Source: Perna viridis (taxonomy: Eukaryota). Taken from it: DNA of 64,000 bases. Numbering within the stretch: position 1 is the stretch's first letter; every line of letters begins with the position of its first letter. The position numbers and the translations under genes are program-made. The notes under the pieces were generated by a model that searched no databases, was not told where the DNA came from, and was given only the letters and a program-made list of their open reading frames with translations. Below are positions 34,260 to 51,200 of the stretch, one piece after another. The stretch spans positions 16,058,001 to 16,122,000 of the forward strand of contig CM074516.1 of the NCBI GenBank assembly GCA_037379345.1, given 5' to 3'.

Positions 34260-35103
34260 TTAGAACATTGCATAGAACATGACTACAGTTTTAATGCTGT
34301 TAAGGATTTTCCTGACATGTGTGATGCTGAAACACAGACTTGTCTGACAAAGGCCGACATCAATAAAGTGGAAGACCAGTAAAGAATCTTGAGGGTGGGT
34401 TGGAGGATTCCAAAAATAAAATACTGGTCAAGGAAGACAAGTGCAGCAAGGCAACAAGCAATGAGTTTCTCATATATTTACCACCTGGATCAATCTTATG
34501 AACAGCAGTTTTTTCCTTGCATAAAATGGCCAAAACGAGACAAAATAAAAAAGTACATGCCTCTATCTTTCAGAAACTACTGTCATTATAGACTGTACTG
34601 AATTATTTATTCAAACATCTGGATCACCAACAACACATATTATAACTTACAGTACCTACATACATCATAACACTTTTAAAGTTTTAGTGAGTATAACTCC
34701 GTCAGGTGCATTCAATTTCATTTCTGACCTGTAGGGAGGAAATACATCAGATAGGTTTATTACGGAAAATAGTGACTTTCTTGATATGGTTCGTCCAGGA
34801 GATGAAATTATGGCAGAGGTTTTACCGTAAGAGATCTTTTATTAGACAGGCGAGCAACACTAGTTCTTCCTCCTATTACTAGGAAATGTGAATGGGGTAA
34901 AGGTCGGCGTCTTACATCAGCAGAAGTAAAACTTACTAAAAATATTGCTTGTCATAGAATTCATGTAGAAAGGGCAATACAGAGATTGAAGAAATTTCGA
35001 ATGTTATCAGGTGTGTTGTTGGATTGAAAATATAAACCACTGGCCAATCAAATGGTAACAGTAGCTGTTTTTTTGCAACCTTGACAAACCACTTGTGAAG
35101 TAA
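34260..35103 (+). mobile_element. ISL2EU/Harbinger-superfamily (DDE_Tnp_4) transposase fossil
   Basis: [95 protein letters not shown]. Contains stops and deletions. Confidence 0.85.
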
Positions 35104-35739
35104 TGCTACATCTAAACTTTTGTATTTGTATGCTTTTTCAGGTTTTTATCATTATTATTTGAACATTGTTAGAGTTAAACTTTTTCAGCAATTGTCCAGC
35201 GAAAAGAGAAAGTCGGTACAGTGCTTACATGTTCCATTATCCCTAAGAAAGACTAAAAAACAATAAAATTATAATTTATGTCCATATATAAAATATCCTA
35301 AAAATGTATACATACTTTTACATGTACACGTATGTATCAATAAAATAAGTGGATCTGAAGGGGCAATAAGGCCACTGTCATGGAAGTATTTTTAATACAT
35401 TTTTATGTAATACTCAACAGTTTAGCTAATTGATTCCTCAAGTGAATTTATTTTTTAGCAATGTACTATATAATATAGTTTTCTTGAAAAAAAAATTGGG
35501 GCTCCTGATTTTGCCCTTTTAAGTCTGCCACCGTATAGACTAAGAAATTATGCAAGGCCTGCCTATATTGAACTGGCAGTTTTTGTTATGTTTGAGAAAA
35601 AGGGACTAGAAACTGGTCTATGATGATTTCATTCCTTTTTGGTGGTTCTTTCCATTGTGTCACCGGGTATTTTGTGGCATTAAGAAAAATGTCGTTCCAT
35701 ATAAATTTTTTTTATTCTGAAAATACAATTAATCAACTT

Positions 35740-36133
35740 TGTAATATAAAATTACAATAGCGAGATTAACATTTCTCGTATTGAACTATTAAATAATTCC
35801 GAACATTTATTATATTTATAATTAACTAACCTGAAAATACAGGGAACTGTGGCAAAACAGTCCACTCTGTGCCACGTATGCCCGTACAATGTAATGACTA
35901 CAGGTGTGACAGGCAGTTAGTAAACAGGTGATATTTTTCATGCAAGAGTGCATTCAAATTAAGGTGCGTTTGACTTTTAAGTTTGGTCCGTCAGTTAATA
36001 TGAACTGATGATGTAATGAATGATTAATGAATTAAATGACTTGGATAAAATGTATATCATATTTTATCTAAATCAATAGTTTTAATTAAATAAAACCAAA
36101 AATACGGAAAGCTAAATGGACCTTCCCATGACA
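35740..36133 (-). repeat. Gypsy 3' LTR (possibly truncated on its outer side)
   Basis: TG...CA, matches 49909-50293; AATAAA on the minus strand ~65 nt before the end. Confidence 0.82.
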
Positions 36134-36291
36134 TGGTCCCCCACAGGACAAAATGCGTCCCCGAATTTCTGTACATATAATACAAAAACATCAAATTAAA
36201 GAAATAATTAAACAAACATTAAACATATGTATGAATAGTATGTGGCAAATGCCTCGATACTATTATAAAATAACAACACAAGTTATACATA

Positions 36292-36953
36292 TTAATTGGA
36301 AACTCTATTTTCATTGTCCAATGTGACCTTCTGCATTTGTGACGCCCATTTCTCGCCAAGACCCTGTGATGGATGTAACCCATCTACAAGATGTGAATAT
36401 TTATATCTGATTATATCAGAACATCTCTGATGCACATAGCTGTGTAAGAACGGAGTACATAACTCATTTTGCGAGTTAAACTCGGTAATGAATCTATTTA
36501 GAGTTAAAAGAATAAAATTTAATCGGTCCTGCATGGCATTATACTGGGACTCGTGCGCAAGAAATGTTGTTCTGCGTGCTAACAACCGGTGATGATTCTA
36601 TTTCTCTAAATTCATAGTTGTTATAATAGCAAAAACTAAATAGCATCGCATACGTCGCAACTGTTCATATACGGTTTCCTTCGAGTTCTTATACGTATCA
36701 ATAATAGAATTCACACTAATATTCATAGTTAAATAGATTCCTGATATAAAGGATATTCCTTTGAACGTAACGTACAAATATCTGGTATGCTACGTACAAA
36801 ATACACGAATCTAGTCCTTTCAATCGAACGTAAGTCTCTTTTAGCCATGTCCAATAATTTCAATATCTTCCGATCGGGCCTCACAATTACTCCAGAACAA
36901 CTTAAACCTTCTAAATATCTCCCCCTACTGGAACAATAGACATACGAATTCAT
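36292..36953 (-). pseudogene. Gypsy ORF3 in the env position: SGNH/GDSL hydrolase-like, ~220 codons, one frameshift and one stop
   Basis: ORFs 36729-36953 and 36292-36585 join via a frameshift near 36735 and a TAG (probably TGG) at ~36600. Motifs YCSSRGRYL (block I-like), FVYFVRSIPDIC (block III-like) and LVDGLHPS..LGEKWA (DxxH block V). Confidence 0.62.
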
Positions 36954-36980
36954 GATCTGAAGATAAAAACGAAATAAAAC
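36954..36980 (-). promoter_or_regulatory. Candidate splice acceptor 3 nt upstream of the ORF3 ATG
   Basis: Minus strand reads gttttatttcgtttttatcttcag|atcATG; AG at 36958-36957. Confidence 0.5.
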
Positions 36981-36981
36981 T

Positions 36982-37528
36982 TGGAGCAGAGTGATTGCGC
37001 AGTGGAAGCGATTTCACGATTGTTTGTTCAACCATGCAATTGGGAAGCTAGACGACGAGCACTATAACTTTTGTCTACGACCATGATTTCGATTAAAAAC
37101 GATCTTTCTAATCCTACGTTTATTTACATAATATATACATTCACATATTTGAATACAATGTTTACCGATCGAACTCTGATTTCTAACTGACCATAATTAT
37201 GTGCCGAATCTGAACAAATAAACCCAATTAACCTAAATGTAACTCCCCAAATTACCAATTTGAACTTTTACCTTCTCATTGTCTGTCTGATACAGATCAT
37301 TAAATATGTTAAACAGCTGACCGCTATCAAAATAATTAATTAGTTCCAAGTACTGGATGACCAGACAAACAACGACTATCTTATCTTAACTAGATCAAGG
37401 TTACAATTCGATTTCTATGTAAAATTATCAATGAAAATTAAAAGTGAAAAGAAATAAAACTAGCTAAAAAAACGTTATCTAAAAACATATGAAAATTGAA
37501 GTCAAAAAACATAATTGTCTTCTAAACA
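36982..37528 (-). repeat. BEL/Pao 3' LTR
   Basis: Near-identical to 43331-43877; PPT aagaaggggagaa at 37541-37529. Confidence 0.96.
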
Positions 37529-37704
37529 TTCTCCCCTTCTTGATTGAGCATAGCCAATCAACAACAACAAAAAAAATAAAAAAAATAAAACGAAATAAAT
37601 GAAAATATTCGATAGTCTATAATTCATAACTATAGCGATAGTCCATATAAACGGAGAAAATTAAAGTCACTGCTTCTTGATAGTTATTGCACGTTAAATT
37701 TAAG

Positions 37705-40700
37705 TCAATTAACTTCCAACGGGCACAGTTTGGTAATTGGTCGTACTAAAACAGTTTGTCCAAGTCTAATTTTGGCGACTCGAACATGATTGTCCTTTCC
37801 TGAGTACACCTCGATGATTCTGCCTAACGGCCAATGTCCTCGTGGAAGATTGGGATTCATTACAAGCACAATGTCATTGGGTTTCAAGTCCTTTTCAGTT
37901 TCAGTCCATTTATGTCTTCTATTTAGTCCTGGTAGCCACTCTTTAATCCATCTTTGCCAGAAATGTCTAACTAATTCCTGGATTCGACGCCATCGTTTAC
38001 GTGGGTTAAAGTCAGTTGTATCAACGGTCTCTGGTGCAAACGCTCCTCCGATTTGTCCATGTAGGAAATGGTTAGGCGTTAACGGTAAGTCATCTCTGGA
38101 ATCTGCCGACTGGTATGTAAGCGGACGCGAATTAATGACTGCTTCGGCACCAATAAATGCAGTTAACAACTCTTCGTCAGTAATGTCCGCATTTCCTAAA
38201 ATGGAATAAATTGCTTTCTTTGCGGCTTTCATCATCGTTTCATGTACGCCTCCATAGTGAGGCGCGAGAGGAGGATTGAAATGCCACTTCACACCTCTAT
38301 TCGACGTATTGTCACATATTTTGTCTTTATCTAATAGTGAAACTAGTTCCTGTAATTCCTTGTTTGCACCGATAAAGTTTGTTCCATTGTCCGAAACAAC
38401 TTCTTGTGGCATTCCACGTCTACTGGCCATTTTATAAAACGCATTAAGAAAAGAGTCAGTATCTAGTCCAAAAGCAACTTCCAAGTGCACGGCTCTCGAT
38501 GCCAAGCACGTAAATAAACACAAGTATCTCTTTTCACGTCTCTTTCCTCGACCCTGCACTGTTATAAATGGACCACCATAGTCCACTGCGATACGCGCAA
38601 ATGCATGTAATGGCGTTCTGAAACGAATGTCCGGTAAAGGAGCCATTACTTGCTCTGCTGTTTTCGCCTTTCTCTTACGACACGTATAACACTCATTTTC
38701 ACACTCGCGTATTTCCTCTCTGGCGGATATAATCCAATATTTAGATGACATCATGGATAATGATTGATTTGTCCCGCACACATGTCTACCTTTGTCGTGG
38801 TAGTATTTCACGATTAGTCTTGTCACGCGATTTTTCCTCGGAAGTATTATAGGATACCTAGTGTCATACGGCAAGAAATCTGCATGTTCAAGACGCCCGT
38901 CACATCTAAGTAGTCCATATTCATCGATTTTCGGTTTTAAACTTAGAAGTTTACTGCCCGACGGTAACTGTTTTTCTTTCATAATTGAATTATAATCCTC
39001 TAGAAATTCACACCTCTGCGCGTCGCGCACGATTTGAGTCTCTGCCTCTTCGATTTCATCTACACTAAGTCCACCTTTTCTACGCAAGTCACGCGTAAGT
39101 TTACAATTTTCAACGAATCTGTTAACCCATGAACAAACACGAACGAGTCTCAACCAGCTCGAATAATGTTCTGGATTTAAACGCCAATCCTTCTCCGATA
39201 CAGACACAATTTTCATTGTAAATATTTCACTGTCCTTGGCAGTCTCTAATTTAGCACCCGATTTAGCGCTTTTAACTTCTTTTTCGCACGATAGTCCTTT
39301 GTTAATACGACATTCAGGCCAGTCACATTCTTGTTTTGATAGAAAGTCTGGACCTTCCCACCATATAATGTCCGATTTCAGCTGAATAACAGTCCTGCCT
39401 CTCGATACCAGATCCGCGGGGTTTTCTTTCGTTGGTACGTAGCGCCACTGTGTTGGACTCGAAGCCCTGTGTATCTCTCCAATGCGGTTCGCGACAAACG
39501 GCTTGAAGTCTCTGCTTCGACCACGTATCCACCATAAAACATCCATAGAATCTGACCAAAACACAAGTTGTTCCGTCGGTATTCTAAGCGGCTCCGCAAT
39601 GGAAAGTGCAAGTTTTAATCCTAAAACAGCAGCCATCAACTCTAATCTCGGAATACTAACTGCAATAATTGGTGCAACTTTCGATTTCGATGCAATAATC
39701 CTTGTCGAAATTAATCCACTCTTATACTCGATTCTCATATACGAAACGGCACCATATCCTTCTTCAGACGAATCAACGAATGTATGAATATTAGTATGAA
39801 TAATTTCCTCATTTTGATCCACAACTTGTAAACACCTTTGAACTTTGATTTGATTCAAATCATTTAGCTCTTTAAACCAAGATTTTGCTTTACATATTAA
39901 ATTTTCATCTAGTAAATTATCCCAATTATATCCAGTTAACCACATTTCTTGAAGCAACATTTTAGCTCTCACTATATACGGCGAAATAAATCCAAGAGGA
40001 TCGAATAACATAGCCACTTTTCTCAAGAAATTTCGCTTTGTGTACACAAAGTCCTCGCCTGGAGGATTTGCTTTGAATGTGAATAAATCTACATTCGCTT
40101 TCCACATAATTCCCAAGGTTTTCACAGTAGGCAAACTACCATCATCAAGATTAACTTCGGACGCGCGATCTTCCTTCGGAATAAAATCTAACACTGCCTC
40201 TGAATTTGATAACCATTTGCGTGCGTACATTCCAGCTTTCCACCATAAATCAGACAATTGATTATACAATAATATTCCCTCATGTTCATTCATTACTGAA
40301 TCCATGCTATCATCCATGTAAGTCGAATGAAGTACTGTTTCCGCAGCTCGCGGATGCGACGCTTTCATGCACTCGGCATGCTTCTGCACAACATATTGGG
40401 CCTGAAATGGCGAAGAATTAACTCCGAAGACAACACTATTGAATTCATATTCATCCGGTTCTCGATTTAATTCCATTGAGCGCCACAAAAACCTGTGAAA
40501 CTGCCTATCAACCGGAGCTATATTTATCCTCAGATACATTTCAGCAATATCACAAACTAACGCAACTGGATTCTTTCTAAATCGCAATAGAACATCAAAT
40601 AAATCCCTCTGTAATTTTGGACCTTGATGAATGACACTATTTAACGATGCATTTTCACACTTTGCAGACGCGTCGAATACGATCCTTGTCTTTGTAGTTT

Positions 40701-43217
40701 CCTTGTCTGGTCTTACAACTGGAAAGTGCGGTAAATACCATTTTCCCGATTTCGGCACCTCTTCTTCAGCTGGCACTTTACGGACGTAACCTTTGTCAAG
40801 ATACTTTTCAATAGTTTTAACGTAATCGTTCTTCACAGTCGCATCCTTAATTAACCTCTTCTCAGTATTCTCAAGTCTGCGATAAGCCATATTATAATTG
40901 TCCGGTAAATTAGCAGGGTCACTCTTCCAAGGCAAGGCTACTTCATAGCGACCATCTTTGAAACACATTGATTGTTCAACGATTTTGACAGCTTGTTTAT
41001 CTTCGGCACTTAACATCTCATTCTTATCGATAGGTTTGACGTGTTCAATGTCCCAGAATTTCTTTAACAATAAATCGTATTCATTTGATTCATTGATACT
41101 TCCGACGAAGTATGTGTAATTGTAATGTGTCAGATTGTCATCAGTGTCTGGATTCCCAATACACGTCCATCCAAGGGGAGTTAATCTTGCTATCGGCTCG
41201 CCTGGTTTACCACGAATATCCTTGTACGAATAATGTAAATCGGCATAATCCAAACCAATTAACATATCAACTTTAGGCTTCGAACCTATGTCCGGAAACT
41301 GTATGCCTTTCAAATGTTCCCACTTAGAACTGTGCTGTCGCCAATCTATGGGTTTCATATTCCCGGTCACCTTGTTTGTCGTGAAAGCTACGATTCGATT
41401 TCTTGTTCTGCCATTCACACTTTCAATTTCGAACTCAACTGGCATTGTTTCAAACGATTCACATTCATCATTTAAAACATTTACTGTCATAGTTTGTAAC
41501 TGTCCATGGAGACCTAACTCTGCGGCTACATCCGAATTAATATAAGTCTTTGTACTAGCATCATCGAGTAGTGCGTTCACTTTCAACTTTCGATTACCAG
41601 TTCTGACAATTACTGGTACAGTTCTTAAAATTACATTATTTACCTTTTCTCGGTCTTTAGCGATCATCGTTCTGTTTTGACGCTCCCCTTCAGTGTTCGG
41701 CTCTGTAACACTTTTGAATATTTCTGAATGTCTGTGCACATTGTTACTGTCCACTCGCCTGCGTTGATTAAAATTGTTAATCCTTTCATAATGTAACATT
41801 CTATTATGAAGCTCCCTACAACCATCGATTCCACACGTTCTACTTCTTGGACACCTTTGTCCGAGGTGATTATCTCCTAAACAACGATAGCAAAGTTTAT
41901 GCTCCTTTGCAACATTCCACCTTTTTTGCAAATCCATTCTTTTGAACATTTCGCAGTTCCACACACCATGCGGCTCATTACATTCTTTACATAGTCGTCT
42001 ACGAGCATTTCTATCTGTGTTTTCAGTGTTACTGACGAAAGTTCTGTTTGTACCCGGTCTCGGACGCCTGACGTCATTGTTGTTCAAGTTGTCTAATCCT
42101 CGGACAGTTTCGCTCGCGATAGTTTGGAATTCCGCTTTCTGAATTATCCACTCCCTCAACGATTCGACTGATTCCGGTCTCCGTTTCTCGAATACCCATC
42201 TATGGTACTGCGCAAGCATAGACTCGGGTAACTTTTGCTGTAATTTATTGTATAACGATCCATTACCAAGTTCTTCACTACGACCGGCATCCCTTAGATT
42301 CACAACAGTTACGTCAATTAAATCTGCGAATTTGTCAATGTCTCTTGAATTTCCCACTCGAATTGGTTTGAAAGTTTCTAACTCTTCTATATAACGTGCG
42401 ATCTGTCGTCGTTTACCTCCATATTTACGCTCCAATCTGTCTTTTGCAGCCACGTACGCTGATTCCGAATATCCAAGATTTTCAACCACTTTTAATGCTT
42501 CTCCCGATAAGTATTGTCTTAACTGTCTTAACTATATTCAGGTGTAGCCGGCGCTTTGTCCACACACGACATGAAGGCGGCCCTCCATGCTTCATAACTT
42601 CGTTTGTCACCCGAAAATATTGGAATCGCAATTCGTTTCAAGTGCTTCCACATGTCATTTCCGATTTCGATACGATTGTCACTTTGAACTTCAACTGGTA
42701 TGTCACGATTAATCCGATCTGCTAATTGTCCAATGTCATCTTTAATTTCACGTCTATCGCCACTATCGTCGGTAACTGGAACATCTTGTCTATCTATTTC
42801 TTCTCTATAGTTCGATGAACGCGATGAAACACTAGAACCGTCTTTTGTACTTATCAAAAAGTTTTGACATTCATTTATCGCTTCAGAAAATTCTGATTCC
42901 ATTTGTTCTAGTTCATTAGCTGTTTTCCGTACATTTAATATTTCGTTTCTCTTCTTATATTCGTCATATAATAATTCCATAATGTTCATAGCATTTTCTT
43001 CTGCATCTGTAAGTTTTTGTCTTATTTCTTTGATGATATCACGATCTGGAATTTCGTCCGGTTCATCGATTAATTGGAGAAGGTTATGTCTCAATTTTGT
43101 GAAGGCCGATTTAGCTTTTGCCTTGTCCTTTTTAATATCCTCGATTTTTTCATTTTGTTGTTCGATCATTGTCTCTTCCATTTTTTCGTTTCTAAGATCT
43201 AACTCCCAATTGCTCAT
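37705..43217 (-). CDS. gag-pol: BEL/Pao Gag-Pol polyprotein (ORFs 42528-43217 and 37705-42489, split by a frameshift at ~42530)
   Basis: IPIFSGD gag motif; three Zn knuckles (CKECNEPHGVWNC, CYRCLGDNHLGQRC, CGIDGCRELHNRMLH); protease LLDDAS; RT WYLPHFPV/RIVFDAS/YMDD; RNase H FVDSSEEGYG/PRLEL; integrase VDYGGP/SDNGTNF/LTPNHFL. Confidence 0.95.
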
Positions 43218-43307
43218 TTTCGATTAACGATCACTAAATGTCAATATTAATTCCGATTATGAATTATAATTTCGATACGATTTCGATAAGTCCGTTTTGT
43301 CCATATT

Positions 43308-43325
43308 AACCACGCTCTGCTACCA
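43308..43325 (-). promoter_or_regulatory. Primer-binding site, initiator tRNA-Met
   Basis: Minus strand TGGTAGCAGAGCGTGGTT, 5 nt inside the 5' LTR; complementary to the ...CTCTGCTACCA 3' end of tRNA-iMet. Confidence 0.85.
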
Positions 43326-43330
43326 GAAAA

Positions 43331-43877
43331 TGGAGCAGAGTGATTGCGCAGTGGAAGCGATTTCACGATTGTTTGTTCAACCATGCAATTGGGAAGCTAG
43401 ACGACGAGCACTATAACTTTTGTCTACGACCATGATTTCGATTAAAAACGATCTTTCTAATCCTACGTTTATTTACATAATATATACATTCACATATTTG
43501 AATACAATGTTTACCGATCGAACTCTGATTTCTAACTGACCATAATTATGTGCCGAATCTGAACAAATAAACCCAATTAACCTAAATGTAACTCCCCAAA
43601 TTACCAATTTGAACTTTTACCTTCTCATTGTCTGTCTGATACAGATCATTAAATATGTTAAACAGCTGACCGCTATCAATATAATTAATTAGTTCCAAGT
43701 ACTGGATGACCAGACAAACAACGACTATCTTATCTTAACTAGATCAAGGTTACAATTCGATTTCTATGTAAAATTATCAATGAAAATTAAAAGTGAAAAG
43801 AAATAAAACTAGCTAAAAAAACGTTATCTAAAAACATATGAAAATTGAAGTCAAAAAACATAATTGTCTTCTAAACA
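43331..43877 (-). repeat. BEL/Pao 5' LTR
   Basis: Near-identical to 36982-37528. Confidence 0.96.
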
Positions 43878-43979
43878 AAACTAAACAAGAAAGTAAAACT
43901 GGAATAAATGACTGGTGTCAAACTGATCTAGTTGTGGCAATGACCGCGCAACAGTCAATTCGACTTAACTTAATAAATA

Positions 43980-46900
43980 TCAATAATAAATAAAATCTCC
44001 AAATCTATCCGGAGGATTAACATTCCTTCTACTTCTGTGGACTAACTGATCAGAACTGTTAGAAACTGAATGACTTCTATCCTCAACTACAGATTGATCC
44101 GTATTATCATGAACATCCTCACCATGAAAAGTAGAATTTGAGAGAGCAAGGAACGGTTGTCTATCTATTGAATTAGGTGATACATTGTAAAGTGGCGAAT
44201 CGTGAGATTCAACCGTAACGCGGGGATCAGAGCTCGGAACGGTGTCCGTTACTTGAGACGGCGTAAATTCGGGCGCGGAAGGATTCAATTCCCTCGCAAC
44301 CGTAACTCGTCGTACAGTGTTCCTATATGGTACGAAACACTCAACGTCCTCTGAAGTATCAGATATAGAATCTTCTACCTCCTCCTTAGAATGAGTAATA
44401 GGATCGGACGTACACGTAACGTCAGCACGATCTTCTGACGAAGTTATCTCTGGTGTGGACTTACATGCATCAGCGGATGAAACTTTGCTTGTTAACTTCT
44501 CATAGAGTGGTAACGAACCGATCGGAAGCAATATGTTCCGGTGGACAGTTTTCATATCGCCTTGTCCATACTCACATTTCACGACATATACAGGTATATT
44601 GACATCGGGCTGAAATTTCACAATATATTGGATACGATTCCATTTGTTTGCGAGTTTGTGCATTCCTCTCAAACCTACGTTCTTAAGCAGAACTCTATCG
44701 CCGGGTTTAAGTACAGAGCTACGAACTCTGAAGTCGTATCCAGCATTGTGTCGTTTACCCGCCTTTTCTGCTTCCTTCTCGGCCGTTTTGTAAGCAAACC
44801 GGAGACGTCGCTCTAATCTCTGAACATACGAATCGCGAGATTTATCGCTCAAAGAATCAGTCTGAGTACCGAAAAACGCATCAATAGCAAGTCGCGTATC
44901 CCAACCTAAAAGTAGAAAATGTGGACTTTATCCCGTACTCGCATGGCGCGTCGCGTTATAAGCATGTACAAGAGGTGAAACAAAGCTCTTCCAATCTGAT
45001 TTGTGGTCATCATTTAGTGTACCAAGCATACAAAGAAGCGTTTGGTTAAATCTCTCGCACTGTCCATTACCCTGAGGATTATATAGGGTCATGCGAGATT
45101 TCTTAATTCCTGCTAGGTTACAGAGCTCCTTAATGAATTTGGATTCAAAGTTCCGCCCTTGATCACTATGCAATCGAGCTGGAAAAGAATAACGTTGAAT
45201 AAAATTCTCCCATAACACCCTCGCTGTCGTATGCGCGGACTGATTTTTGGTTGGAATTGCGTGCGCGAGACGCGTAAAATGGTCAGTAATTACTAGTATA
45301 TTCTCGTAACCTCCCTTACATCTCTCTCGCCATTCAAATCACAAAACCTGTACAATACACCATTTTTAGTGACAATTTATTCCACTCATTCAAAATTCTA
45401 CGAACCTCTTTCGATTTCCTCGCTAAAACACTTTTTGACGGTTTTCGACCAGACAAAAATATATCAATAATGTTCAAATCCGCATGTTGCTCATCAGACC
45501 AGATAACATCACCTATAGTATGATCTAAAGGTGAAAAAGTATCTTAACTCTCAGCATCCTTAGCCACAAATATAGATTCAACACTCGGATTATCTGAAAC
45601 TACAGCAGATGTACACACGGCCTTAACAACATGACAATCAACTGAATGATATATTCGGGACAGAATATCGGCGTCGACGTTAGTTTACCCGCTTCTGTGA
45701 GTAATAGTGAAGTCATAGTCGGCTAATGAAGCAACCCACCTTTGTGCAGTCGCGTCTAATTTTGCTTTATCCAACACATAAGTAAGAGGATTATTATCAG
45801 TTTTAACTTCAAAACGACTGCCAAACAAATAATCATGGAACTTGTCCGTTACAGCCCATTTTAAAGCCAAAAACTCTCTCTTATGTGCAGGGTAAAGTTT
45901 TTCCGCACCGCGTAAACCACGATTCGCGTAAGCTATAACTCGGTCTATGCCGTTTTGCCGCTGATATTAAATAGCCCCCAACGAATCTGAACTCGCATCC
46001 GTATGAACTTCGAACGGAAGCTATAATCTGCATAAGCTAGAATAGGAGGAGAGATAAGTTTCTCAATAAGGGTATATCTAGCCTGCTGCTCAATATATGT
46101 CCAACGCCAAGGAGTTTTAGCCTTCGGTTTCGTTTTCTTACCAACTGATTTGTTCGTAGGGTGTCCTACAAGGAGATCATTTACAGGTTTTGCTATTTTA
46201 CCGCAATCCTTAACAAAGTTGCGATAATATGAAGTAAACCCTAAAAACTTCCTTATATCTTTCACATTTTTTATCTCTGGCGAATCTCTAACAACCCTAA
46301 TCTCGTCATCGGGCAAAATACCGCCCTCAGAGACCACAAATCCCAAGTACTTAATTTCAGTCTTGAAAAAATCGCACTTGCTTCCTTTCAACTTAAGACC
46401 ATTATCCTTTAACCGACTGAATACGGAATCGAGGCGTTTTAAATGTTCGTCAGAAGTTTTCGAATATATAATTATATCGTCGAGAAATACCCAACATTCT
46501 CGTAAATGCATCTCGCCCATGCACTTTTCCATAAGTCTCTGGAAGCAAGCAACGGTGTTCGTTAGACCAAATGGGAGTCGATTGCATTCATAGAACCCGA
46601 GCGGACTCACCGAAAAAGCGGTCTTGAATTGATCGGACTCCTTAATTCCGCATTGCCAGTACGCCGATCGGAGGTCAATTTTGGAGAAATACTTAGACCC
46701 AGCTAAGAAATCGATCGTTTCGTCGACTCGTGGTGTCGGATAGGCGTCTTTAACCATTCGGGAATTCAACTTCCGGTAATCGATGCAGAAACGAAGTGAA
46801 TTATCCTTTTTACGAACAAGCACGATATTGCTCGAAAATGGGCTATTCGATTCACGAATCGCACCTGCTTCTAGCACCTCCTTTAAGTGTTCACGGACTT

Positions 46901-47830
46901 TGTTTGACATAGCCGGAGAAATTCGTCTATATGGCTCTTTGAGGGAAGTTTCGTCACTCAACTTAATCTCATGTTCCACCAACGTAGTGAAACCTAAGTC
47001 GGTCGGTTCCGTAGAAAAAATATTGACTTCTACTTACCTATAAGATCGTAAAATTACGTTTTGACATCGTCTGATAGATCCGCGTCTACCTTAAAACCTA
47101 TAGCATCAAAATACTCTCGAGCGTCTTGTTTAGATATATCAGCGCTGCCGACTGACTCGGTCTCGTTATCTGCGTTGAAAGGATCGGCGTGTCGAAATAC
47201 TTTACCTTCACTTGCACTACAAAGAATTGATTTGGGCTTAACCTTAATGACCTTTGCTGTCATGTTACAAACTCGTACCGGAATTCAACATTTACCCTCT
47301 TTCTTCAACTCAACAACCCGAGGACAAACCATAAGGCTATCAGAAAACTGACTATCGATACCCTCTGGAACAACTGTAATGGCAGAACTGTTGCCGTTAC
47401 GAACCACACCTGACAGAGTTTGGCTTGACATTGGCATAAGCGTAATAGGCTTTTTGTTCGTTGAATAGACCAGAATCGAGTTTGTATGTGTAAGTGAACG
47501 GAACGCCACGTTCCATTCCGGCGGAATGTTTTCATATACCTCGGTATAAGATCTTAACATGTTCAGTACATTTGTACCAATAATAACTGGGACATTCTGG
47601 TTATATTCAGTATTTGAAACTACCAACATAAGAACTGGAACAGTCTCGTTGTTCATGAATGGTACTGTCAAGTTAACCTCTATATAAACTGAATAAGGTA
47701 ATTTGTCACCAGAAGCTATACTTACGGATATGATTTCTTTAACTTTTGATGACACTTTTAATTGCTTTATCATCGTTTCAGAAATCGTCGAAATCATAGA
47801 TCCACAATCCAAAAGAGCTTTACATAGTTA
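43980..47830 (-). pseudogene. pol: Gypsy pol (PR-RT-RNaseH-INT), fragmented
   Basis: ALLDCGSMIST; LRFCIDYRKLN, IDLRSAYWQ, LPFGLTN, VFLDDIII; KTDNNPL; LHSDQGRNFES, NPQGNGQCERFN; C-terminal RSRRNVNPPDRF. Several frameshifts and stops, with the integrase N-terminus apparently deleted near 45330. Confidence 0.92.
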
Positions 47831-47931: not shown

Positions 47932-49005
47932 CTACCCGTTTAAATGTCCGTCATTTGAGTCTCCACCGCGGCCCCGGTTATTTCCTCCACCTCGGTTACG
48001 ATTCCTGTCTCGGCCCTTTCCATTACCTCGATAATAGCCGCGATTCGATTGGTTCGAGGATTTATCAGTTTTCAGACTTTTAAGTTCCGACTCCATTGAA
48101 TCCATTCTTTTGTCGAATGTGTCTAGTTTTTTTAACACTTCGGTTATTTTCTGGAGTTCAACAGAAACGGAACTCTGTTGTACACTATTACATGTAGCCG
48201 CTGTGTCATTCGGACTCGAATTTGTTAGTTCAAGTTCGATTGCTCGGACCTCTCGCCTTAGCATATCAAAACTAGAAACAGAGTCATACTTATGTCGGGT
48301 GGCATTTCTCAATAAAGGGTCATGTAAACCAGACCAGAATTTAGATCTTAACATGTCATCCTTAGATTCAGGATTTACATGGCCTCGCTCTATAGCAGAC
48401 TGTACAAGAGACTCTAGTTTCATACCGTAGTCAGCCACTGTCTGATTAGGCTGCTGTTTCTCAGTATAAAATTTCTGGAGCAATGCTTCGCTCGAATATA
48501 CATTACCGTATATACCCTCCAACTTATCTATGATTTGCTCAGGACTTACATCCTCTGGCAAAGTCAATAAAAGGTTACGGGCTTGCCCTTTCAATGAATT
48601 ACTCAGGGACTGAACTATAATAGTTTCATCAAAATTCCCTTCTCTAAGTATACACCTGACCTCATACTTCCATACCTCAAAAGTTGCCTCTCCTTTTTGA
48701 TCACCAGAAAAAGTTGGGATCCTAGGCCTTTGCCAGTTGCCATGGGAATTATTCCCGTTCTGGTCAATAGGAATCAGGGAGTATTTCCCTATAGGAGTAA
48801 GAGGGTGTGGTCTAGGGGGTGCGTGCTCGGACTTAACCTTGGGTGCCGGGGTGCTACACTGAAATTTATCAAACTCCGCCTCAGTAACAACCATATACTC
48901 TGTATGATCAATCAAATAACTGATCATTCTCTGTATATCTGTGGTATCTAAACCCAAAAAGTCTAACTTCTGTTTTGTTACAGATTTGTCAAAACCTGTC
49001 GCCAT
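47932..49005 (-). CDS. gag: Gypsy Gag (PNMA-like capsid), 357 aa, frame open
   Basis: PRIPTFSG...FEVWKYEV...SLKGQA...LEGIYG...KFYTEKQQPNQTVADYGMKLE...FWSGL; Arg/Gly-rich C-terminus. Confidence 0.9.
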   Translation of the reverse strand: MATGFDKSVTKQKLDFLGLDTTDIQRMISYLIDHTEYMVVTEAEFDKFQCSTPAPKVKSEHAPPRPHPLTPIGKYSLIPIDQNGNNSHGNWQRPRIPTFSGDQKGEATFEVWKYEVRCILREGNFDETIIVQSLSNSLKGQARNLLLTLPEDVSPEQIIDKLEGIYGNVYSSEALLQKFYTEKQQPNQTVADYGMKLESLVQSAIERGHVNPESKDDMLRSKFWSGLHDPLLRNATRHKYDSVSSFDMLRREVRAIELELTNSSPNDTAATCNSVQQSSVSVELQKITEVLKKLDTFDKRMDSMESELKSLKTDKSSNQSNRGYYRGNGKGRDRNRNRGGGNNRGRGGDSNDGHLNG

Positions 49006-49908
49006 TTTAGTGTCTGAATGGCACTTAGTAAAATTTTAGCAAAAATGATAATCAATGAAAATGAATGATATATATGATGCACTTACCGTCCCCTAAGTAG
49101 TCAAGTGCATGCAAGTCATATTATTAATGGTGCAAACATGCAAACTGTAGTCTTCAAAATACACCACGCACTACAAAACATGAATAAACATATGAGTAAA
49201 TTTAAATTAAGCGAAAAACAATATTATATACAATTTATAATATTTCAATTTAAAGTTTTTGTTATTGTCAATATAATAAAAAAAAATAGCTGGAAATTTA
49301 TAAATGTTCATGAATAAAGTTAACGGACATTGCACATTCTTCCATGAAACATATTAAATTGACCGACTGGTGCACTCGAATGTTTACTGTTTATATATCG
49401 GAATGTCGATGCAATATTGGTGTTCTCAACTCGAAATGAAAGTTCAATAACTACGAATGAGTAATCAATAACATCAAATAACAGAATGCGCTTCAAGAAA
49501 ACGGAACATTTCTTATTCTGTCGTCGTGAAACAAAAACCCACTGTATGTACAAAGCATCATCGTAATACACAACGTTGTGATTTTTGTCGAGCTTCTTTT
49601 ACGCTATCGCACATATTTGTGCATGTCCATTTAACAAAAATCGTAAATAACGACTCTTTTCAATAATCTGGAGTTGCGTATTATCATGAAACCATAAACA
49701 GGTCAAAGATGAGCTGTGGTTATAACGATAATTCATACTACTATGAAATTCCTTGTGAAGTGAACGATGATAACGTCGTCGGCAGACAATGTCGTTGACA
49801 AGAGTCTTTGGCATAAGTCATTGACAAGAGTCGTTTGCAAAAGTCGCTGACAAAGACGTTGAGTCAAATTAAGGGATGAATTACCAAAACCAAGGTTTGT
49901 AAAAACTT

Positions 49909-50367
49909 TGTAATATAAAATTACAGTAGCGAGCTTAACATTTCTCGTATTGAACTATTAAATAATTCCGAACATTTATTATATATATAATTGACTAACC
50001 TGAAAATATAGGGAACTGTTGCAAAACAGTCCACTCTATTCCACGTATGCCTATACAATGTAATGACTACAGGCAGTTAGTAAACAGGTGGTATTTTCCA
50101 TGCAAGAGTGCATTCAAATTAAGGTGTGTTTGACTTTTAAATTTGGTCTGTCAGTTAATATGAACTGATGATATAATGAATGAATAATGAGTGAAATTAC
50201 TTGAATAAAATGTTTATCATATTTTATCAAAATCAATAGTTTTAATTAAATAAAAACAAAAATACGGAAAGTTTAATGGACCTTCCCGTGACAAAAATAC
50301 GGAAAGCTAAAAAAAAATACGGAAAGCTAAAAAAAATACGGAAAGCTTAATGGACCTTCCCGTGACA
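49909..50367 (-). repeat. Gypsy 5' LTR (49909-50293) with a tandemly re-duplicated outer terminus (50294-50367)
   Basis: aaaatacggaaag occurs four times; taatggaccttcccgtgaca occurs twice. Confidence 0.82.
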
Positions 50368-50410
50368 ATTGTAAATATCTAATGTACATGAATTATAATA
50401 CATAACTTAC

Positions 50411-51200
50411 ACAACACATGTGCAGCCTCCACTTTTAACATGTCCATCAGACATGACCAGTACCAAGGTTGAGTATGGCTTTTCTGACTGCATTGTTTCT
50501 GGTATGCAGCTGGACATTATATACATAAAATCTGTGTTAAATAACTGTGTGATTTCTACATTCTGTATATGGTTAGCCAAATGCAGTTTGTAACCATTAT
50601 AATCTTCCAGAGATGCCAACCTATCTTTACTCCAGCTACTATTCTTCATCAAATAAATCAGAACATCATAAGGCTCTATCATCGGAAGTGTTCTTAAATT
50701 GGTGGACCAGTTTTGCACATCGTTTATGTTAGGTAGAACCACTTTTGATCCATTCACCTGAACTGTTCGTCGTGTTATGTCCATATCGTGATAATCGTCT
50801 GCTGCTGTTACCACTTCCAAGTCTAATTCCATAGCTGTTTCAGACAAAGCCGGTATAAAACGATAGAGGCTATATATAGAATATGATAAACTTGCATTAA
50901 ACATATATATGTAATACTAGTCTTCTTAATTTGTTATGCATATTTGGTTAACAATTAATGCATCCCAGTTTACTGATCCTTGTCTTTCAATTATCCACCA
51001 TCGATGATATATATAGATGATGGCATCTGCATACAAATGATTAGATAATAGTGTAGGTGTGCCACATGCTGCTATTGAAATAGGTCAGAGTAAATTTTTA
51101 TCAGTGTGGGTCTTATTTTCCACACAAGTGCACTGAGCACACACTATTTAGAAGACGATTTAAAAGGACTGGATCTGTTCAAAAAGATGAAGGTACAATT
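50411..51200 (-). mobile_element. Accessory ORF fossil of an ISL2EU-like element (THAP-like remnant plus the N-terminal/SWIM-type part typical of the YqaJ-nuclease ORF)
   Basis: WSTNLRTLP..VLIYL..WSKDRL..GYKL..NHIQNV..CIPE..KPYS..DGHVKSGGCTCV ending at a gtaagt donor; VCSVH..RPT remnant at ~51110-51150; convergent with the transposase at 34260-35103. Confidence 0.62.

Follow-up and report, generated by a model that had tools for sequence, protein, structure and literature searches.

An SGNH-fold accessory gene at the 3' end of mussel Gypsy elements with and without an envelope gene

The locus and its nested elements

The window, that is, the whole 64,000-nucleotide stretch of Perna viridis DNA analyzed here, carries a retrotransposon of the Ty3/Gypsy plan (gag, followed by protease, RT, RNase H, then integrase, with direct LTRs and a polypurine tract), which ends in a broken accessory open reading frame (ORF) and is interrupted by a second element. 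The features are as follows.

35658..36133, minus strand: Gypsy 3' LTR (LTR comparison)
36134..36145, minus strand: Gypsy polypurine tract
36292..36953, minus strand: broken ORF for a predicted SGNH/GDSL-fold accessory protein, the last gene of the Gypsy element (six-frame translation)
36957..36976, minus strand: predicted splice acceptor, a pyrimidine tract and AG, 3 nt ahead of the ATG (matching joint in a related family)
36982..43877, minus strand: young nested BEL/Pao LTR element, separate from the Gypsy (547-nt LTRs, target duplication)
43980..47830, minus strand: Gypsy pol (protease, RT, RNase H, integrase), split over several frames
47932..49005, minus strand: Gypsy gag, PNMA-like, frame open (PF14893, E 9e-13)
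49081..49086, minus strand: predicted splice donor GTAAGT, 81 nt ahead of the gag start (same position in copies L043, L055 and L082)
49904..50293, minus strand: Gypsy 5' LTR, which shares 91% identity with its 3' counterpart along 399 nt

The ORF spans 662 nt, or about 220 codons. In six-frame translation it starts with the ATG at 36953, and its first piece reaches about 36732; the second frame begins about 36789, so that the frameshift lies between about 36730 and 36790, and after an in-frame stop at 36598-36600 the last piece terminates at 36292. The peptides of an earlier sequence-only reading of this DNA are thus recovered on the minus strand with the single frameshift, the single in-frame stop and the length of about 220 codons that it gave, and the ORF does lie upstream of the polypurine tract and 3' LTR, as it had stated. 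The catalytic Ser is kept in this copy and the block II Gly is absent, likewise in the sister copy L082; none of the three pieces gave a GDSL match in Pfam, and it is very unlikely that the window copy makes a working protein. The 91% identity of the two LTRs indicates an old insertion. The 5' LTR lacks the final ~75 nt that the 3' LTR has in common with L082, and, with its inner end absent, no target-site duplication was called for the element.

The pol that adjoins the ORF (37705-42531) belongs to the BEL/Pao element, as seen from the Pfam matches Peptidase_A17, DUF1759 and DUF5641. This 6.9-kb element sits between the ORF and its Gypsy pol, which ends at 43980, beyond the insertion. Its 547-nt LTRs (36982-37528 and 43331-43877) are 99.8% identical, it is flanked by an AAACT target duplication (36977-36981 and 43878-43882), and its insertion point is about 20 nt upstream of the acceptor of the ORF. 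All three sister copies spanning the insertion site (L045, L050 and L082) have no BEL sequence there, and the end of pol is joined straight to the ORF. Hence the earlier placement of the ORF behind pol stands once the nested element, which went unmentioned, is discounted.

At its inner end the BEL LTR carries a sequence complementary to the element's own primer-binding site (CTCTGCT/AGCAGAG, at 36982-37010 and 43310-43360 of the window), and this end resembles the sequence complementary to initiator tRNA-Met at its 5' end; these features suggest that the primer makes contact in two parts. The Gypsy is flanked at 34283-35100 and 50407-50916, on one side by Pfam-matched remnants of a Harbinger-like transposon (DDE_Tnp_4) and on the other by an ORF that may come from it, and the Gypsy may be nested inside this transposon. 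The segment 53576-63550 on the minus strand presumably belongs to a host gene, judging by the motifs of its repeated fibronectin-III-like exons and a GTPase-like domain.

The ORF family, its fold and active site

Searching the genome with a 101-aa C-terminal piece of the ORF gave at least 64 matches, and searching it with a distant open copy gave at least 84, split copies being included in both counts; given the 64 matches, the window ORF is not a product of chance. Fifty-six copies, picked for longer frames and diversity, were fetched as 10-kb stretches. A same-strand Gypsy pol was found upstream of the ORF in 38 of them, an env-like gene in 13, and both in 10; pol without env was present in 28, and 15 had neither inside the fetched 10 kb. 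The linkage of the ORF to this gag-pol lineage, which the sequence-only reading had supposed, is therefore supported by the 38 pol-bearing copies, and open copies were found as well.

Lineage A is env-less and has a PNMA-like gag. One of its families accounts for nine fetched copies with LTRs 99.9-100% alike, at least two of which keep gag, pol and the ORF open. In lineage B, pol ends with a chromodomain and is followed by an env matching Baculo_F (Pfam E 1e-20) and by the ORF; across the 13 env-bearing copies two env frames match Baculo_F, at E 1e-20 and 1e-16. The env of a third group (L061, L065, L083) is divergent; it is open over 837 codons in L065 and has no Pfam match there.

Some further features of these copies were observed in passing. 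The LTRs of an env-bearing family are unusually long, about 1.86-1.90 kb (L068:4843-6705, L069:334-2196), and 99.7-99.8% alike, which points to recent insertion; directly upstream of this Gypsy in L068 (1227-4914) lies a tyrosine-recombinase (DIRS/Ngaro-like) retroelement. A 1.9-kb mini-element (L035:7299-9189) consists of an LTR, a PBS, an open esterase ORF and an LTR, the LTRs being 97.9% alike. It did not arise by retrocopying of the spliced RNA; since the intron pyrimidine tract is kept and the donor is lost, it is an internal deletion of the L055 family.

The close database relatives are named Mytilus proteins. A profile search with an E cut-off of 0.001 retrieved 1,131 clusters, and databases give this family no name: none of the ten clusters looked up had a functional one. 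No longer protein matched the 101-aa piece in a word-indexed search, a scan of IMG/VR gave no relative, and a scan of JGI metagenomes one short matching contig, without gene context.

The natural open ORF of L043, modeled with 102 aligned relatives, gave a confident structure (pLDDT 98, pTM 0.93). Its best VIA match is the GDSL-like lipase 3p94 (Z 16.4, rmsd 2.9 A, 173 residues), and SGNH/GDSL enzymes occupy the top of the structural match list; Foldseek also returned SGNH/GDSL hydrolases (E 3e-8), and the ESM Atlas agrees. In addition, Pfam Lipase_GDSL (PF00657) scored above cut-off in two of six open copies. A search of solved structures by sequence gave weak matches only, the best at E 0.004, and a viral fold library, probed with an earlier and poorer model, gave no hits other than SGNH esterases of phages (best E 2e-5). 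By its model and structural matches the protein has the SGNH/GDSL hydrolase fold, which the earlier reading had expected.

The same reading had pointed to an N-terminal Ser and a DxxH motif, and both are almost invariant: Ser11 is present in all 102 relatives, and Asp195 and His198 in 101 each, in columns that, like that of Gly30 (96/102), have variable neighbors. We take S11, G30, GxND and D195/H198 to represent SGNH blocks I, II, III and V, respectively. The catalytic residue set that we used is that given for the ZfL2-1 esterase in the accessible part of PMC3905857. These conservation counts are inflated, because the relatives were chosen by a profile containing the same residues; among the genome copies covering each position, Ser is kept in 41 of 43, Asp in 51 of 53 and His in 48 of 53. 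Block III departs from this pattern. Its Asn, positioned by motif and not by atom-level superposition, is found in only six of 102 relatives, the usual residues being Pro (62) and Cys (28), with the flanking Gly (102/102) and Asp (92/102) held. The oxyanion hole of this SGNH-fold protein would thus be non-canonical, and, with the Asn so rare, catalysis may be weak or unusual. An Arg directly follows the catalytic Ser in all 102 relatives.

The protein is basic (pI 8.9-9.5 in six of six open copies). No transmembrane segment was found in any of the six, in which the top 19-residue hydropathy mean is 0.86-1.42, and there is no signal peptide, because residues 2-9 build a core beta strand in the L043 model. 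Signal peptide, fusion domain and membrane anchor, the hallmarks of env, are missing from the ORF protein, in agreement with the earlier statement that it is not an envelope protein. A [P/E]KRxW motif was seen in 28 of the 102 relatives (distant ones in alignment A4), close to the C-terminus in those inspected and often behind an acidic stretch.

Probable splicing, selection and possible movement between elements

Four sequencing runs (X1, X2, X8, X21) were aligned to L043. Contigs of X1 and X8, which come from different studies and whose status as RNA, like that of X2, is only presumed, join position 2302 to position 7812. This joint has GT..AG borders, skips gag and pol and connects a GTAAGT donor 87 nt ahead of gag with an acceptor 6 nt ahead of the ATG of the ORF. 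Depth at this acceptor climbs from 7.2 to 22 in X1 and from 4.6 to 12 in X8. No such joint was listed for X2 or for X21, which is the single run recorded as RNA and has thin cover (about 0.3-8x); a separate look-up listed no recorded RNA data set for the stretch. The window copy keeps the same donor (49081-49086) and acceptor (36957-36976). Moreover, a pyrimidine tract and AG precede the ORF by no more than 12 nt in nine of 11 family representatives, compared with 129 of 2681 ATGs in the window.

In three copies of lineage B the frame of the ORF opens right after the AG without an ATG, so its start must come from upstream. L068 and L070 have GTAAAT after gag codon 44, and in the NCBI gene model P0011 (XP_063417676.1, Mytilus trossulus), which is a model only, the ORF is fused to this beginning of gag. 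In L038 and L057 the env frames too begin just past an acceptor-like AG. The ORF is therefore likely to be made from a spliced subgenomic RNA that joins the leader to it, and in the env-bearing lineage splicing probably leads either to env or to the esterase, as far as these candidate sites indicate.

Pairwise NG86 estimates on natural single-frame stretches, with bootstrap intervals, show that the ORF is under purifying selection between families. The six pairs with finite dS gave dN/dS of 0.18, 0.19, 0.24, 0.23, 0.31 and 0.19 (upper bounds 0.32-0.49), rough values for the five pairs with dS above 1.4; the least saturated pair gave 0.24 (0.13-0.46), and two pairs with saturated dS were left out of the count. 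The integrase gave 0.03-0.24 between families. Within families dN/dS of the ORF ranges from 0.27 to 1.58 with wide intervals and that of the integrase is 0.97, and values about 1 are ordinary decay after insertion. The dN/dS comparison suggested earlier thus proved informative between families, whereas a value near 1 among copies, which was to count as refutation, is unfit for that purpose because the integrase behaves likewise. The ORF diverges much faster than the integrase, with dN of 0.35 versus 0.06 in the pair L043/L055.

RT identity is 35-42% between lineages A and B and 62-75% within A (the window RT, which is read out of frame with 21 stops, was excluded), whereas identity of the ORF is 35-45% between the lineages and 35-57% within A. 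Since the ORF far outpaces RT within a lineage, it is closer across lineages than simple descent would leave it, and these distances suggest that the two very distant Gypsy lineages have exchanged it. Tree shape gives no proof: under the AU test on 12 rows, a single clade for lineage A is not rejected (p 0.078). RNase H rows were kept out of the trees. A 24%-identical member of the family adjoins Helitron-like Rep/helicase remnants in three near-identical segments, where most Pfam scores are below cut-off. These segments (L092, L095, L097, about 2800-8400) lie on different contigs within near-identical stretches that are 20 kb or longer, in which Rep/PIF1 remnants are followed by the distant esterase member; in L094 the upstream ORF has a tyrosine-recombinase-like motif without Pfam support.

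Possible role of the gene and comparable genes in other elements

The reading that we prefer, with a confidence falling a little short of even, is that the gene encodes a serine esterase working inside the cell, which is produced from spliced subgenomic RNA, attaches to acidic membranes and aids particles with or without env. As the last gene of the element, it would be expressed from spliced RNA in the manner of env, and its soluble product would act inside the cell or the particle on acidic membranes or an acylated substrate, helping the particle to traffic, bud or uncoat, alongside an envelope gene or without one. Catalytic activity is suggested by the conserved Ser/Asp/His triad, and a membrane role by the basic charge and by analogy with the ZfL2-1 esterase, which binds acidic liposomes via its surface charge according to the accessible part of PMC3905857. 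A basic surface is equally compatible with RNA binding. Against a membrane role stands the distant member beside the Helitron-like Rep/helicase, and Helitrons are not known to form a membrane-bound particle.

That the esterase replaces an envelope, letting env-less particles cross membranes and spread from cell to cell, would accord with the position of the ORF in the env-less lineage, where it takes the place of env and is apparently spliced like it, and with the 28 of 56 copies that carry pol and no env. However, an env-like gene precedes the same ORF in 13 of the 56, including the two Baculo_F matches and the env open over 837 codons, which speaks against the role peculiar to env-less particles proposed in the sequence-only reading; moreover, the protein has neither signal peptide nor transmembrane segment. 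Because env-bearing elements retain the gene, we find substitution quite improbable; since related elements carry the ORF alongside a true env, the esterase likely assists the particle. The main rival, though rather unlikely, is counter-defence by an active esterase or deacylase directed against a host immune or silencing molecule, which would be useful whatever the particle. It would explain why the family is common to two very distant Gypsy lineages and has a distant member beside the Helitron-like genes, and why the ORF outpaces the integrase as conflict genes do, while the invariant Arg after the Ser and the altered block III suggest a specific, perhaps anionic, substrate. Fast evolution is, however, common among accessory genes, and there is no known host target.

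The basic pI, the missing block III Asn and the presence of the Oskar OSK domain among the structural matches (Z 14.4, level with many enzymes) could also fit a nucleic-acid-binding scaffold of the OSK type that catalyzes little or nothing. The accessible part of PMC3905857 describes Oskar as lacking catalytic function, whereas the mussel family retains the triad in 101-102 of 102 relatives and in most genome copies; for this reason we regard such a scaffold as improbable. Finally, a captured host gene useless to the element would show the within-family dN/dS near 1 that we observe. But the integrase shows the same within families, between families the dN/dS of the ORF is 0.18-0.31, and the acceptor sites are maintained across families, so that a neutral passenger is hardly credible.

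Possible, though somewhat doubtful at present, is that the env-bearing, errantivirus-like elements of mussels carry four genes in the order gag-pol-env-esterase, in which a single donor within the gag region would be spliced either to env or to an esterase whose active site is non-canonical, and in which the esterase with its acceptor would form a cassette moved between distant Gypsy lineages, Helitron-like elements and host genes. If true, this would define an enzymatic accessory gene of invertebrate retrovirus-like elements working together with the envelope.

SGNH esterases recur in unrelated mobile elements, and nobody has demonstrated their use to the element. The closest precedent is the GDSL/SGNH ORF3 of bdelloid Vesta LTR elements, for which membrane penetration and env substitution were discussed by Rodriguez et al. 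2017 (PMC5408684), a finding repeated in the accessible parts of two reviews (PMC6431247, PMC5718144); the novelty as a Gypsy-like ORF3 assumed in the sequence-only reading is thereby preceded. Compared by description, both ORFs are of SGNH/GDSL type, lie behind pol in an env-less LTR element, have no transmembrane segment or coiled coil and have a putative membrane or auxiliary role. Vesta differs in having a dUTPase between protease and RT, of which Pfam scans of the L038 and L043 pol gave no sign, and in an ORF3 of about 1.3 kb with S, G, N and H all kept, versus 0.66 kb with the Asn mostly replaced in mussels; the Vesta paper has no env-plus-esterase element.

The ORF1p found in ZfL2-1 and in further CR1/RTEX/Penelope elements (accessible part of PMC3905857, Schneider et al. 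2013) shares the SGNH fold, basic charge and triad with the mussel ORF. Its esterase is a domain of a protein with a coiled coil, an oxyanion Asn and shown activity, whereas the mussel ORF is the stand-alone last ORF of an LTR element. In the available text of 10.1101/2021.08.05.455354, Ngaro-like tyrosine-recombinase elements likewise have a stand-alone SGNH ORF of putative function at the 3' end, after YR, but, unlike the mussel Gypsy, they have no LTRs or DDE integrase and their ORFs overlap. The SGNH hydrolase of a platyfish Helitron, described as a captured host gene in the accessible part of PMC4021074, is likened here by description, as mobile-element cargo, to the mussel family with its distant member beside a Helitron-like gene. 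Gag, a chromodomain pol and an F-type (Baculo_F) env, as in lineage B, characterize errantiviruses of Cnidaria, Mollusca and Annelida in a 2026 survey (PMC13524379), the supplement of which lists Mytilus F-types. The likeness is one of gene content, and the ORF behind env in lineage B is absent from the survey's descriptions: as far as accessible, the main text has no lipase, esterase, hydrolase or ORF4, and seven supplement files have no SGNH, GDSL or lipase.

Our literature search found no SGNH ORF reported for a mollusc Gypsy or behind env, although Repbase and subscription journals may hold one, and neither env and esterase in one element, nor env-like splicing, nor sharing by two very distant Gypsy lineages. 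Thus the mussel ORF is a known kind of cargo that is new in being short, in its non-canonical block III, in occurring both without and behind env, and in probably being spliced. The main published idea is membrane crossing, possibly replacing env, and the mussel elements weaken its env-substitute version. They offer a natural comparison, because one gene occurs in lineages that have env and in lineages that lack it. Its natural copies include open ones, its model is confident and its active site is sharply conserved, so that a single small soluble protein would suffice to test for the substrate.

Two open copies, both on contig C7, have no retroelement genes nearby (L052:1468-2142, minus strand; L053:7820-8971, plus strand). 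In L052 and L053, which pair in the tree, the catalytic Ser and His are replaced and the frame begins at an acceptor-like AG; L053 continues into an Arg/Asp-rich tail and has Gln-rich and Arg-rich frames upstream. From their sequences, the two look like catalytically dead copies adopted as host-gene exons, and the protein P0016 (2135 aa, with six profile-matching stretches) may be a similar case.
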